This document shows positions 16,025-58,151 of a stretch of 64,000 nucleotides of DNA, piece by piece (positions within the stretch are counted from its first letter, which is position 1; each line of letters starts with the position of its first letter). The notes beneath the pieces were generated by a model, which did not search any database, was not told the DNA's origin, and worked only from the letters and a program-made list of their open reading frames with translations. The translations under genes were made by a program, and so were the position numbers. The DNA comes from Clostridia bacterium (lineage in GTDB: Bacteria; Bacillota; Clostridia; UMGS1883), in NCBI GenBank assembly GCA_017440585.1, contig JAFSGW010000099.1, positions 42,436 through 106,435 on the forward strand, written 5' to 3'.

Positions 16025-16222
16025 GCGATATAAATCCCTGTCGGGATTTGCGATATTCCCCTTCGGGGAGCGATATACCTGCGGTGCGATATGTTCGGCT
16101 CTGCCGAACGTGTTATGGGTGTGAGGGATTTATAGCATATCGCATTTTCATTTTAATGAAAATATATCGCATCCGAATGAAATGAGGATATATCGCATTA
16201 TTCCGAAGGAATAATATATCGC
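16025..16222 (+). repeat. GCGATAT/ATATCGC hairpin-chain element, full copy 1
   Basis: GCGATAT at 16025, 16050, 16070, 16086 and ATATCGC at 16137, 16164, 16190, 16216, with a hairpin between successive motifs. Confidence 0.9.
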
Positions 16223-16237
16223 CAAACCGCTTTCCAA

Positions 16238-16278
16238 AATTCTGTGGCAATACACAAAATTTCGGAAAGTGAATATTG
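16238..16278 (+). repeat. 41-bp direct repeat, copy 1 (upstream of AAA ATPase)
   Basis: aattctgtggcaatacacaaaatttcggaaagtgaatattg; 40/41 identical to 17651-17691. Confidence 0.92.
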
Positions 16279-16320: not shown

Positions 16321-16349
16321 TGGCAATACACAAAATTTCGGGAAGTGAA
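16321..16349 (+). repeat. 29-bp core of the same repeat, copy 2 (5' UTR)
   Basis: tggcaatacacaaaatttcgggaagtgaa, identical to the core of 17651-17691. Confidence 0.9.
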
Positions 16350-17652: not shown

Positions 17653-17691
17653 TTCTGTGGCAATACACAAAATTTCGGGAAGTGAATATTG
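17651..17691 (+). repeat. 41-bp direct repeat, copy 3 (overlaps ATPase stop codon)
   Basis: aattctgtggcaatacacaaaatttcgggaagtgaatattg. Confidence 0.92.
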
Positions 17692-28213: not shown

Positions 28214-28351
28214 GCGATATGTGGCGTTGCCACGCGATATATTTCACTTTGTGAAATGCGATATAACAAAAGGAACGCTTCGCGTTCCTTCTGTTGCGAT
28301 ATGACAGAAAACGTGTTTTCTGTCGTGAGGTAAAATGCTTTGCATTTTACC
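28214..28351 (-). repeat. GCGATAT hairpin-chain element, half copy
   Basis: GCGATAT at 28214, 28234, 28258, 28296, each followed by a hairpin (gtggc/gccac, atttcac/gtgaaat, aaggaacgc/gcgttcctt, gacagaaaac/gttttctgtc). Confidence 0.88.
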
Positions 28352-54549: not shown

Positions 54550-56910
54550 ATGCAGGCTGTTATAAACATTTGTGACGAGGGAATAAGGCTGAGACCCTTA
54601 AGCTGTGTCAGAAACCCTGCCCTTGTAAGGGTGGGAAGATTAAGTGTGCTTGAGCACATGATAAGGCTTCTTTCCTGCGGGGGATGTGAAAAAATTATAA
54701 TAATTTCAAGCTACATGTCAGAGGGTGTAAGGGTGCATTTAAAGGAGGCTGACCGCTTCGGGGCAGAGCTTGTGTTTTTAAAACACCATAACGAAAAGGA
54801 GGCACTTACAGCCTGCGCGAAAAAAATAAACGGGGATTTTATTTATATCTCAGGGCCACTTTATGCCGCCTTTGATATAAAAGAGGCAATACAGCTTCAC
54901 AAAAAAAGAAATGCCTTTCTTACCCTTATTACCCCTCATGGCATCTGCGAGGGCATTGCAAGCGACAAACGGGGCAGGGTAACAAGGGTTGAGGAGGCAA
55001 GGCTCTGGAGCAGTGTTTCCGGGGACAGTGGCACGGGGGTTTACATTTTAAAGCCTTCGGCTGTCCATTTTGCCGAGGGAGGCGGATTTACCCGTAAAGC
55101 CTTAGGGGATATTGTACGCTCGGGAAGAGAGGTGTATATAAAGGCAACAAAGGGTCCCTTTGAGCCTGTCTGCGATACAGCCTCCTACATGAGAGCCTGC
55201 TTTGCCTTTCTTGAAGGCATGAAAAAAACCGCCAACGGCGGTATTGTGGTTGAAGAGGGTGCAGTTGTTGAAAAGGGTGCCCTTTTAGAGGTGCCCTGCT
55301 ATATAGGAAAAAATGCCCACATTCATAAGGGGGCAAAAATCGGTGCCTTTTCCCTCATAGGTGAGGGGAGCGTTATATCCGAGGGTGCAAGCATAAAGCG
55401 GAGCATTTTAGGAAAAGACTGCCGTGTGGGTGCAGGTGCCTCACTGAGGGGCTGTATTTTGGACGAAGAGGTGCACCTTGGCAGAAGCACCACCGTTTAC
55501 GAGCAGGCAATAGTGGGCAGGCGGTGCTCCGTTGCAGGGGAGGTTTTAATAAAATCCTTTGTGAAAATATGGCCCGAAAAGAGGGTTGAAAAGGGTGTTA
55601 TTGTTTCGGAAAACATAATGTGGGGGCAGAAAAAGCGGTCACGACTTTTTGAAGAGGGCAAAATTGAAGGCGTTGTAAATGTGGACATTACGCCTCTTTT
55701 CTGCACCCTTTTAGGCTCTGTTGCAGGCAGACTTTTCGCCTCGGGAGCTGTTGGGGTTTCAACTGACGACTCTGCCTCAGGAGCTATGCTTCGTGATGCA
55801 ATAGTGTCGGGGCTTATGGGCTCGGGGTGCACCGTTAAGGACTTTGGGGAACAGCCCCTGCCCATTACACGCCGTGCAGTGGCGTTTTACTCATTAAAGG
55901 GGGCGGTTGCCTTAAGCGTTCAGTCCGTTTCGGGTGAGGAGGTCTGTCGTGTAAGCATTATGGGAAAGCATGGCTTCGACATAGAGGATAACGTGAAGGC
56001 AAAGCTTGAGGAAATGTTTGAAAAGGGCGAGGTTGTGTACCCTGAAGCAAAAAGTGTAAAGGAATGTGAGTATGTTTTTGAATACAAGCTTTACTACCTT
56101 AAAAGCTTTGTGGACTATAAAAGGGTTAAAAGAAAGGGCTTAAGGGTGCTTTTAAGCTGTCCTGCCACCTGGGGGAGACGGCTTATTACCTCCTCACTTT
56201 CTGATTTTGAATCCACGGTAAGTATGTACGAGGGCGATGCGGATACAAGGGAGGGCAGGCTGGATTTTGCCTCTGCTGTACATGAGGGCAATTTTGACCT
56301 TGGCTTTATGCTTTCCGGAAGCTGTGAAAAGCTTTATGTGGTATATAAGGGGAGGCTGCTTGCCGATGATATGTATGAGGCACTCTGTGCTCTTATGGTT
56401 ATGAAACAGCACAAGGGTGCAAAAATATATGTGCCCTGCACCTCAACGGGTGCCATTGATAAGCTTGCGGAGAAATATAACTGCTCTGTTGTACGGACAA
56501 AAAGCACTTCCCCCGACATTATGAGGCACATGGCAGGAGATGAGGGGTACCTTACAAAGCAGTTTGTTTTCCGTTTCGATGCTGTTGGCTCGGTTATTCT
56601 GCTTATGGACTATTTAACGGGCACGGGGGAGGATTTAGGAGACCTTATTTCTCAGATACCGCCCATTGCCATGGAAAGAGCCGTGGTGGATATGCCCCAT
56701 GGAAGGCTTAACACAGTTATGGAAAAAATAAGCCGTATGCCCGAGGCGGAGGATTCTCCCGAGGGGGTTAAAATAACCTTCGACAAGGGCTGGGTCATGG
56801 TAATACCCGACAGGGAAAAAGAGGTTTTCCGCTTGTGCAGTGAGGGCGTAAGCATGGAGGCGGCAAAGGAGCTGTGTGATTTCTGCATAAGGACCATAGA
56901 CGAAAAATAA
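54550..56910 (+). CDS. Sugar-phosphate nucleotidyltransferase / LbH / phosphomannomutase-like fusion, catalytic motifs degenerate
   Basis: EGIRLRPL N-terminus, hexapeptide repeats, VKIWPEK, GVVNVDITP, EGVKI..GWVMVIPD PMM domain IV. Confidence 0.8.
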   Translation: MQAVINICDEGIRLRPLSCVRNPALVRVGRLSVLEHMIRLLSCGGCEKIIIISSYMSEGVRVHLKEADRFGAELVFLKHHNEKEALTACAKKINGDFIYISGPLYAAFDIKEAIQLHKKRNAFLTLITPHGICEGIASDKRGRVTRVEEARLWSSVSGDSGTGVYILKPSAVHFAEGGGFTRKALGDIVRSGREVYIKATKGPFEPVCDTASYMRACFAFLEGMKKTANGGIVVEEGAVVEKGALLEVPCYIGKNAHIHKGAKIGAFSLIGEGSVISEGASIKRSILGKDCRVGAGASLRGCILDEEVHLGRSTTVYEQAIVGRRCSVAGEVLIKSFVKIWPEKRVEKGVIVSENIMWGQKKRSRLFEEGKIEGVVNVDITPLFCTLLGSVAGRLFASGAVGVSTDDSASGAMLRDAIVSGLMGSGCTVKDFGEQPLPITRRAVAFYSLKGAVALSVQSVSGEEVCRVSIMGKHGFDIEDNVKAKLEEMFEKGEVVYPEAKSVKECEYVFEYKLYYLKSFVDYKRVKRKGLRVLLSCPATWGRRLITSSLSDFESTVSMYEGDADTREGRLDFASAVHEGNFDLGFMLSGSCEKLYVVYKGRLLADDMYEALCALMVMKQHKGAKIYVPCTSTGAIDKLAEKYNCSVVRTKSTSPDIMRHMAGDEGYLTKQFVFRFDAVGSVILLMDYLTGTGEDLGDLISQIPPIAMERAVVDMPHGRLNTVMEKISRMPEAEDSPEGVKITFDKGWVMVIPDREKEVFRLCSEGVSMEAAKELCDFCIRTIDEK

Positions 56911-56940
56911 AAAGAGATGAGCCTTCGCTCATCTCTTTTT
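56909..56940. terminator. Bidirectional terminator
   Basis: aaaaagagatgagc-cttc-gctcatctcttttt. Confidence 0.85.
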
Positions 56941-56944
56941 ATTT

Positions 56945-57117
56945 GCGATATGTGTGCAAGCACACGCGATATATTTGCCTTCGGCAAATGCGATATACCT
57001 GCCCAAGGGCAGGTGCGATATGATAAAATCCCACATGTCCCGCAGGACATATCGTGCACTTGTGCATATCACGTCCCGAAGGGACATATCACAAATCCCG
57101 TGAGGGATTTATATCGT
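56945..57117 (-). repeat. GCGATAT/ATATCRY hairpin-chain element, full copy 2 (inverted relative to copy 1)
   Basis: GCGATAT at 56945, 56966, 56990, 57015; ATATCGT/ATATCAC at 57049, 57066, 57086, 57111; hairpins between motifs; shares aaatccc/gggattt terminal hairpin with copy 1. Confidence 0.9.
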
Positions 57118-57128
57118 TGCAAAGAAGA

Positions 57129-58151
57129 TTACAAAAGCTCAACGAGCTTTTGTACATCTTCGCAGCTTGTTGCCCAGCTTGTGGCAAAGCGGACAACCGT
57201 GTGGTTCTCGTCGTACTTTTCCCAGTAGCTTATACAAACCTTTTCTTTAATTTTTGCCATTTTACCGTTTTCAAGTATAATAAAAATCTGGTTTGTGGGG
57301 GAGTTTATGAAAAATTCATACCCTTTTTCACGGAATGCATCCTTAAGCATCTGTGCTGTTTCAATAGCATTTTTTGAAATTTCAACATAGAGGTTGTCTG
57401 TGAAAAGAGCATCGAACTGAACGCCTAAAACCCTGCCCTTTGCAAGCATTGCACCATGCTGCTTTACAAGGGTTGAAAAATGCTTCGGGGCATTGTTTTT
57501 AGTGAACACAACAGCCTCACCGCAAAGTGCACCGCATTTTGTACCGCCTATGTAGAAAACGTCGCAAAGAGAAGCGATGTCGGGAAGGGAAAGGTCGGCT
57601 CCGGAGGCTAAAGCATAGCCAAGGCGTGCACCGTCAAGGAAAAGGGGCAATTTGTGCTTACGGCAAACTTCGGATATTTCAGTAAGCTCCTTCTTTGTAT
57701 AAAGGGTGCCGTATTCCGTGGGATGGGAAATATAGACCATGCCGGGGTAAACCATATGACTGTGGCTTTCGTCAGCATAGAAGGTTTCAACCCATTTGTC
57801 CACATCCTCTGCCTTTATTTTGCCCATGTAGTGGGGGATGGTTATAACCTTGTGACCTGTGTATTCAATGGCACCTGCCTCGTGGCATGCAACATGACCC
57901 GTTACTGCAGATATTACGCCCTCATGCCTTTCAAGCATTGTGGCAATAACCGCCTGATTTGTCTGTGTGCCGCCGGATATAAAGAAAACCTCCGCCTCGG
58001 GGCAACAGGTTGCCTCTCTTATTTTCTCCTTTGCAAGACGGCAGTATTTGTCCTCTCCATAGCCGTCAAGCTTTTCCATGTTGGTTTCAATAAGGTGCTC
58101 CAGAACACGTGGATGTGCACCCTCTGAATAGTCGTTTTTAAAATATAACAT
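57129..58151 (-). CDS. ltaE: Low-specificity L-threonine aldolase
   Basis: FKNDYSEG, GGTQTN, HEAGAIE, LDGARLG, IGGTKCG. Confidence 0.9.
   Translation of the reverse strand: MLYFKNDYSEGAHPRVLEHLIETNMEKLDGYGEDKYCRLAKEKIREATCCPEAEVFFISGGTQTNQAVIATMLERHEGVISAVTGHVACHEAGAIEYTGHKVITIPHYMGKIKAEDVDKWVETFYADESHSHMVYPGMVYISHPTEYGTLYTKKELTEISEVCRKHKLPLFLDGARLGYALASGADLSLPDIASLCDVFYIGGTKCGALCGEAVVFTKNNAPKHFSTLVKQHGAMLAKGRVLGVQFDALFTDNLYVEISKNAIETAQMLKDAFREKGYEFFINSPTNQIFIILENGKMAKIKEKVCISYWEKYDENHTVVRFATSWATSCEDVQKLVELL

Follow-up and report, generated by a model that had tools for sequence, protein, structure and literature searches.

An Inverted Heptamer-Hairpin Dyad Behind a Threonine-Aldolase-Like Gene of a Clostridia Bacterium Contains Rfam Gut-1 as One of Its Arms

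The Locus Between Two Convergent Genes

The window analyzed here, by which we mean the whole 64,000-nt stretch of clostridial DNA, carries a compact array of short repeats at positions 56945-57117, between two convergent genes. On the + strand the heptamer GCGATAT has been found four times (56945, 56966, 56990, and 57015), each time followed by a palindrome of different sequence, which behind the first three copies reads GTGTGC/GCACAC, ATTTGCC/GGCAAAT, and ACCTGCCC/GGGCAGGT. The fourth copy is followed by a linker, GATAAAATCCCACAT, and by a further hairpin, after which the heptamer appears in inverted form as ATATCGT (57049), ATATCAC (57066), ATATCAC (57086), and ATATCGT (57111), with three further palindromes in between. 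In the following, the sense strand is the strand on which arm A reads Gut-1-like (see below), which is also the sense of the upstream gene and in the window corresponds to the - strand. On this strand arm A opens with CA and continues with the heptamers ACGATAT (57111-57117), GTGATAT (57086-57092), GTGATAT (57066-57072), and ACGATAT (57049-57055), which are separated by the hairpins h1 (AAATCCC/GGGATTT), h2 (GTCCC-TTC-GGGAC), and h3 (GCAC/GTGC). The sequence thus matches exactly the - strand succession of heptamers and hairpins that had been described in the original prediction. The GGGATTT of the linker, taken together with the next ATATC(GC), is the complement of the element start (CGATAT-AAATCCC).

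The element is enclosed by two hairpins of a different type (Table 1). The one named h0 is located directly 5' of the element and extends over the stop and the final codons of the Beta_elim_lyase (ltaE-like) gene. The other closes the far side and terminates the convergent + strand gene (54550-56910); judged by its sequence it looks like a bidirectional terminator, and it has been left unflagged by the consensus terminator scan. Two further copies of the array are located in the window, both of them behind terminators, a full one at 16025 and a one-armed one at 28214. The copies at 56945 and 16025 share the AAATCCC/GGGATTT first hairpin, a CCC-TTC-GGG second hairpin, and the GGGATTT linker, so that the collinearity claimed for them earlier has been borne out.

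Table 1. Positions of the element at 56945-57117, its parts, its neighbors, and the other copies in the window.
Feature	Positions	Strand	Basis or remark
h0, terminator-like hairpin	57130..57154	-	11 pairs, then ATCTTCTTTG; terminator scan
Arm A, Rfam Gut-1 match	57044..57119	-	cmscan, 54 bits against a cut-off of 50
h4 hairpin, GTCC-TGCG-GGAC	57037..57048	-	sequence; position conserved in the family
Linker, ATGTGGGATTTTATC	57022..57036	-	sequence
Arm B, four ATATCGC heptamers (+ strand GCGATAT)	56945..57021	-	hairpins ACCTGCCC/GGGCAGGT, ATTTGCC/GGCAAAT, and GTGTGC/GCACAC in between
Hairpin with A-run and T-run, AAGAGATGAGC-cttc-GCTCATCTCTT, then TTTATTT	56912..56944	+	read from the sequence
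Upstream co-oriented gene, threonine-aldolase-like (ltaE-like), 340 aa	57129..58151	-	Pfam PF01212 Beta_elim_lyase, 94.6 bits
Second full 4+4 copy of the window	16025..16222	+	behind the terminator of the upstream + strand gene; Gut-1 41.5 bits on arm A
One-armed half copy	28214..28345	+	four GCGATAT with hairpins, then GTGAGG and a further hairpin; without inverted arm

The accumulation of the heptamer is far from what chance would produce. GCGATAT occurs 21 times in the window against an expectation of 5.0 ± 2.1, a count reached by none of 100 shuffles, and 16 of the 21 occurrences fall into the three clusters at 16025, 28214, and 56945. The copy at 56945 has a fold energy of -75.8 kcal/mol on the - strand (z = -5.8, equaled by 0 of 200 shuffles) and of -68.6 kcal/mol on the + strand (z = -4.6). 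Its minimum free energy (MFE) structure consists of a ladder of heptamer:anti-heptamer helices together with hairpins, as in the family consensus described below, and the earlier argument that the GTGATAT variants represent G-U wobbles holds for the heptamer pairing on the - strand. Read depth over the element (runs X1 and X2) reflects the many copies of the family and has been left out as evidence.

Relation to the Rfam Family Gut-1

One arm of the element belongs to a family that is already catalogued, which had gone unrecognized in the original prediction. Rfam Gut-1 (RF01706; model length 77 nt, gathering cut-off 50 bits) matches arm A on the - strand over the full model 1-77 with 54.0 bits (E = 6.9e-08 for the whole window), all three stems of the model are placed in the alignment, and the match is the sole one at gathering level in the 64-kb window. 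Arm B of the same copy matches weakly on the + strand (22 bits), and the two arms of the 16025 copy have scored 41.5 bits (arm A) and 16.9 bits. The family has been described from 43 sequences as "human gut only" and rated 'Y' as an RNA and as not cis-regulatory, without a stated function (Weinberg et al., 2010; PMC2864571).

The agreement with the model comprises the four spaced heptamers, the three short hairpins, and the UUCG-type loops. Differences concern the heptamer itself, which is GUGAAAU in the model consensus and GCGAUAU/GUGAUAU in the 56945 copy; the resulting GAUAU spacers in place of GAAAU represent a subfamily variant that is also present in the published Gut-1 seed. More important is the extent of the unit. 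Gut-1 as catalogued comprises 77 nt and is typed "Gene; sRNA", whereas the unit found here measures ∼175 nt and extends the model by one more hairpin (h4), by a linker with complementarity to the start, and by a second arm in inverted orientation. Unlike the published picture, it is also multi-copy, located behind terminators and tRNA genes, and gained or lost between relatives. The 56945 element is therefore a complete dyad of which Gut-1 is arm A, and it is not a new kind of thing, as one half has already been catalogued without being explained. No description of the dyad form has been found in the literature on Gut-1/RF01706, which in full-text searches comprised only the 2010 paper and a structure-prediction benchmark of 2026.

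The Family in This Genome and in Related Genomes

The genome of the window (2.23 Mb in 103 contigs) contains 43 Gut-1 arms at E ≤ 1e-3, of which 17 score over the cut-off, and regex catalogues have revealed further arrays missed by Rfam, the 28214 half copy among them. Several heptamer subfamilies coexist, namely GTGAAAT/ATGAAAT, GCGATAT/GTGATAT, TCGATAT, and ATGATAT, and both arms of one copy share the heptamer type except in two chimeric copies (C61 and C36:8730). The unit number is not free, as had been foreseen: four strict heptamers are found in 33 of the 43 Rfam-level arms and never more than four, a count that is partly ascertained because the Rfam model itself expects four, and arms with fewer strict heptamers mostly contain degenerate ones or are located at contig ends. 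The proposed 4+4 stoichiometry has stood as the common layout with four heptamers per arm. It is not fixed or obligatory, because many half copies have four heptamers but lack a second arm (e.g., at 28214-28302), and truncated derivatives occur as well (G008).

Beyond this genome, 24 of 41 related genomes contain Gut-1, and matches number 0 to 41 per genome. A sampling across the class has found it in 28 of 151 genomes (E ≤ 1e-6). Many copies sit at contig ends, and the repeat therefore accounts for some of the assembly breaks in these genomes. At two places, G000:C2:55388-55911 and C40:1-410, several elements of differing heptamer types are found in tandem within a few hundred bases (two GTGAAAT half copies plus a GCGATAT arm), and these hot spots coincide with contig ends.

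Architecture and Predicted Fold of the Dyad

In order to compare complete dyads, those of this genome have been combined with 20 loci from other genomes that were chosen by score or by paired hits, which has resulted in 28 unique 4+4 dyads; 23 dyad sequences form the alignment A1. In other genera, convergent Gut-1 hit pairs are separated by ∼18-23 nt. The common order is h0, CA, arm A with its heptamers and h1-h3, h4, linker, and arm B with its anti-heptamers and h5-h7. Across the dyads h0 is a strong hairpin, often with an A-run and a T-run as in a bidirectional terminator. Arm A is composed of four RYGAWAU heptamers with short, near-perfect Watson-Crick hairpins between them, and arm B of four complementary heptamers with longer hairpins that are rich in tandem G.A and G.U. 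Hairpin sequences vary between copies and yet remain palindromic, in agreement with the earlier view of a defined folded module rather than of slippage.

The linker comprises the complement of the h1 5' half; behind it come an incomplete and a complete anti-heptamer. The linker is therefore able to pair with the first ∼13 nt of the element. An exact 5-nt linker complement has been found in 23 of the 28 dyads, and in 26 of 28 after two mis-parses were corrected and one G.U was allowed. Within A1, 91.6% of the cells of this start-linker helix are paired, compared to 31-50% in slid controls; 6 of its 13 pairs are compensatory with both sides changed, and the observed values were reached by none of 500 shuffles. 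The helix follows the h1 variants AAATCC, TTGCC, ACGCC, AAATCTC, TTGTTCC, CCGTC, and CCACCC, the last of which comes from a viral-collection contig. RNAalifold applied to the 23 dyads of A1 has yielded a consensus with arm A:arm B heptamer helices and local hairpins (42 pairs, 24 of them compensatory), which predicts a ladder in which fully paired four-way junctions connect 7-bp helices. Covariation of the heptamers exists at the subfamily level only, and register-specific covariation between heptamer i and anti-heptamer 9-i has given no signal; within a subfamily the heptamers hardly vary. The ladder precludes the start-linker helix and vice versa, and this helix is equally conserved.

The Folded Strand

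The arm A hairpins, of which 72 are unique, are composed of 328 Watson-Crick pairs, 3 A.C, and 1 G.U. They are almost purely Watson-Crick and therefore carry no strand signal, and they would suit a DNA palindrome as well. The hairpins of arm B are more informative, as their 479 pairs on the sense strand comprise 425 Watson-Crick pairs, 34 G.A, 16 G.U, 3 A.C, and 1 U.C, with the G.A mostly in tandem in CGAG/CGAG contexts. In 20 of 23 dyads the sense strand has the lower RNA MFE, and DNA folding parameters have given no consistent strand difference for the same 23. Against the sense strand counts the commonest mismatch of the start-linker helix, which is C.A in 20 of 23 on this strand and G.U on the opposite one. 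Both strands offer a plausible loop: CTTCG on the one suits an RNA UNCG-like loop, and CGAAG on the other the GNA triloop of a DNA mini-hairpin. GNA triloops form stable DNA mini-hairpins. Taken together, the mismatch types of arm B and the RNA fold energies favor the sense strand as the folded one.

Placement and Polarity

Non-random polarity had been postulated, and it has been found: the upstream ORF is co-oriented for 26 of the 43 arms, opposed for 10, and absent for 7, counts that rest on a crude ORF map. A co-oriented tRNA is located upstream of 4 of the 10 opposed arms and of one arm without an upstream ORF, and of the remaining six opposed arms four are the second arms of dyads. Copies are found 32-41 nt downstream of six tRNA-operon ends in this genome (41 tRNA genes), and a tRNA gene lies directly upstream in 15 of the 20 loci fetched from other genomes. 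Hairpins of ≥10 bp that end ≤1 nt from the CA have been observed for 21 of 35 primary arms, compared to 114 of 1000 random intergenic positions, and the mean upstream MFE is -18.3 kcal/mol for primary arms and -8.0 kcal/mol for random intergenic positions. As such a terminator-like hairpin separates gene and element in most copies, sense transcripts may be rare. Dyads at convergent and half copies at tandem genes have shown no clear association.

With respect to replication, sense strand and G-rich strand coincide in 25 of the 28 copies that have ≥15 kb of context. The three copies against the local GC skew, the 56945 copy among them, still follow the upstream gene or tRNA, and replication alone is therefore not favored as the cause of polarity.

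The element itself differs from the terminators that it adjoins. It has in common with intrinsic (bidirectional) terminators that its hairpins contain GC and that it abuts terminator hairpins; unlike in those, its own hairpins have no U-tracts, and the internal ones run into heptamers. A GC-rich hairpin with a direct U-tract is thus missing from the element proper, T-runs are found only at h0 and at 56912-56944, and the calls of the terminator scan inside the element rest on the T's of heptamer and linker. As regards the tRNAs, the terminator hairpin at the end of nearly every tRNA operon of the genome has its start at the encoded CCA or inside it. The operons with a Gut-1 copy behind them share one terminator type, GAAAAAAGCAC...GTGCTTTTTTCA, which recurs in other genera, and h0 may therefore travel with the element.

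Turnover Between Close Relatives

That the element behaves as a dispersed repeat with gain and loss had not been recognized in the original prediction. Eight genomes of the same genus contain an orthologue of the ltaE-like gene, and none of them has a complete copy behind it; six have none, and two contain fragments (G007 and G008). The fragment in G008 shows a fusion of the first heptamer with an anti-heptamer (GTGATATCGC) and, behind it, two arm B hairpins that are still recognizable; in G007 only a remnant is left. Directly behind the truncated element, a small HTH gene (∼80 aa) is inserted at both loci (L002 in G007, L008 in G008), and no homologue of this ORF has been found in the genome of the window. 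A metagenome contig of 494 nt that belongs to a close relative connects 56950 with 57135 through 10 other letters, which replace 184 nt. It diverges by 10 differences in 398 nt on one side and by 9 in 86 on the other, and it retains TATCGCAAAT beside the terminator. At the 16025 locus, one of five relatives (G007) contains a copy, which is disrupted: another hairpin takes the place of h3, the h1 hairpin is interrupted, and arm B has decayed. An identical arm variant is located behind tRNA-Glu (two copies) and tRNA-Tyr (one copy). On the evidence of these sequence comparisons, copies are gained and lost between close relatives.

Inverted repeats are present both in the heptamers, whose orientation is reversed in arm B, and as a 13-bp repeat around arm A. 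A target-site duplication could be defined neither from the empty allele of the metagenome contig nor from the orthologous loci, and the phage and plasmid collections have given no match to the element. A pattern scan of a collection of viral contigs has returned at least 121 loci, of which at least 16 pass a palindrome filter and at least ∼8 look by eye like genuine Gut-1 arrays; the other filtered loci, among the matches listed, are tandem repeats or chance. At least two of these arrays adjoin a tRNA gene or a tRNA 3' end and therefore possibly represent host flank. The Y1/IS200-like (PF01797) transposase on contig C67 has been considered as mobilizer and rejected, as it is bounded by its own GGGGACGTACA ends and nothing connects it to the heptamer arrays. 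PF01797 gave no match in the Gut-1-rich genomes G007 (25 matches), G014 (18), and G034 (7), whose assemblies are incomplete, and this analysis has identified no protein partner or mobilizing enzyme of the element.

Interpretation and Alternatives

In Proteobacteria, REP, BIME, and REPIN elements are extragenic, many-copy, hairpin-forming sequences that often occur as inverted pairs, are found at gene 3' ends near terminators, and vary between strains. The family described here is likewise extragenic and multi-copy (43 arms in 2.2 Mb), forms inverted pairs, and has a ladder fold. Unlike REP copies, which have a common stem sequence, those of this family are conserved only in the heptamers and at some positions, with variable stems and no shared palindrome; in addition, each arm is an array of four units. 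No RAYT-type (Y1/HUH) transposase with heptamer arrays at its flanks has been found; the PF01797 gene on C67 is flanked by GGGGACGTACA repeats. BOX elements of Streptococcus pneumoniae are modular intergenic repeats with stable folds and no coding capacity. They resemble the family as modular, non-coding intergenic repeats of Gram-positives with stable structures; BOX, however, has conserved module sequences and a variable boxB number, and the family described here four units with hairpin sequences that are free to vary.

The reading that we favor, and regard as moderately probable, is that of a dispersed dyad repeat, with Gut-1 as arm A, which is present in read-through RNA on the sense strand and serves as a REP/BIME-like 3'-flank module. 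The sense strand, i.e., the - strand of the window, would act as a single strand, most likely as RNA that arises when transcription passes the weak hairpin at the ltaE stop and ends at the putative bidirectional terminator beyond arm B. Local hairpins would form first, and the heptamers of arm A would then pair with those of arm B to give a rod of 7-bp helices at fully paired four-way junctions, with a 13-bp helix between element start and linker as a competitor. Most plausibly the module would provide a stable 3'-flank structure that caps or insulates read-through transcripts as REP/BIME do, and it would spread and decay via duplication, recombination, and deletion. Both the function and the means of spread are what we infer from the features described above. 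A more far-reaching version, which we consider unlikely, takes Gut-1 dyads as an unrecognized class that targets terminators and tRNA trailers and in which the four-way-junction stack on the sense strand and the competing helix constitute a switchable RNA or ssDNA device. If this were true, the unit would drive its own copying, or sense and handle terminator read-through, and would be neither a passive repeat nor an ordinary sRNA.

The main rival to the 3'-flank module, to which we give an appreciable minority chance, is a selfish non-autonomous element that moves as folded ssDNA in the manner of REPINs, MITEs, or PATEs. It would target the site behind hairpin terminators, especially tRNA trailers, and have no host function, with the structure serving mobilization. 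Such an element would account well for the high copy number, which is very uneven among relatives (0 to 41), for the many copies at contig ends, for presence and absence at orthologous loci and in the contig of the close relative, and for identical variants behind different tRNAs. The chimeric copies (C61 and C36:8730), the 13-bp inverted repeat that brackets arm A, the near-perfect palindromes of this arm, and a whole hairpin swapped between the orthologous copies of G000 and G007 point in the same direction. However, no cognate enzyme has been found; the Y1 transposase of the genome has GGGGACGTACA ends and its own 75-nt mini-element, and G007, G014, and G034 bear Gut-1 without a PF01797 match. 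No target-site duplication could be defined, the phage and plasmid collections have given no match, and the polarity tracks the upstream gene even against GC skew.

Quite improbable in our view is that each arm is an independent sRNA gene and the dyad a pair of convergent ones, acting for instance as a protein sponge with four single-stranded heptamers. Both arms do match Gut-1 on opposite strands (e.g., 66 and 53 bits on C56), convergent pairs are many, loops of the CTTCG/CTGCG type are found on each arm's own reading strand, half copies end in terminator-like hairpins, and the motif has been rated 'Y' as an RNA and counted among the non-cis-regulatory ones (Weinberg et al., 2010; PMC2864571). 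Yet there is no room for a promoter between h0 and the first heptamer, the G.A and G.U of arm B are located on the strand on which this arm does not read as Gut-1, its loop types are not the mirror image of those of arm A, and the complementarity of linker and start binds both arms into one unit; ∼45 loci in 2.2 Mb would also be unusual for an sRNA gene. Very improbable is a feature of double-stranded DNA, with the heptamers as inverted protein boxes and cruciform palindromes between them, e.g., a topological or nucleoid-protein site behind highly transcribed genes. The inversion of the heptamers between the arms, the perfect arm A palindromes, the enrichment behind tRNA operons, and a site between terminators at which low transcription is expected would fit, but the heptamer spacing of 16 to 27 bp has no helical phasing, the purine-purine mismatches of arm B are strand-specific and would be meaningless in duplex DNA, and a candidate binding protein is not known. 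Only the short repeat unit speaks in favor of replication slippage or of a chance clustering of a short motif, and the probability of this reading is close to nil: the spacers differ in sequence and are all palindromic, the arms keep to four units, families across the class share the conserved architecture, and the motif count is far over that of shuffles, so that shuffle counts, conserved architecture, and four-unit constancy refute it.

Gut-1 has been an orphan "sRNA" in Rfam since 2010, known from gut metagenomes only, and is here half of a larger unit. As a REP/BIME-like 3'-flank module, this unit would behave as a Gram-positive counterpart of REP/BIME repeats with a strong preference for the site behind terminators, tRNA ones especially. 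Experiments should accordingly seek read-through transcripts, 3'-end stability, and mobility instead of a trans-acting sRNA, and isolate genomes can be used for them.

Other Repeated Sequences Beside the Copies

Several further repeats have been noticed in the vicinity of Gut-1 copies. Mini-elements of ∼75 nt with inverted GGGGACGTACA ends are located at C39:3675-3749, C69:1214-1289, and C71:148-222, two of them adjoining Gut-1 half copies; their end sequence is shared with the flank of the long-form Y1 transposase gene G000:C67:167-980, which is itself interrupted by a second copy. At G000:C19:70093-70573 (L037), the interval from tRNA-Lys to the following Gut-1 copy measures ∼480 nt and closes with a duplicated 3' end of this tRNA (CTGATGGTCCACCA), like a small integrated element. 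The stretch before C19:70605 matches no Rfam family at the gathering threshold, and GGAACCGAGCCCGACCGC-related sequences are located behind the terminators of other tRNAs (C6, C19:100, and C49). Before the dyads L030 and L031 (G031 and G034), only the last ∼18 nt of tRNA-Leu are found as a partial duplicate, which suggests that the tRNA 3' end and the element have been duplicated together, e.g., at the border of an integrated element. Finally, the 21-nt motif TGGCAATACACAAAATTTCGG occurs on the + strand of the window in three exact copies (16245-16265, 16321-16341, and 17658-17678; 0 expected) and is probably a transcription-factor operator. Two of the copies flank a promoter-like TTGACT/TATAAT just 3' of the 16025 element, and the orthologous loci in G007 and G003 have retained the motif as well.
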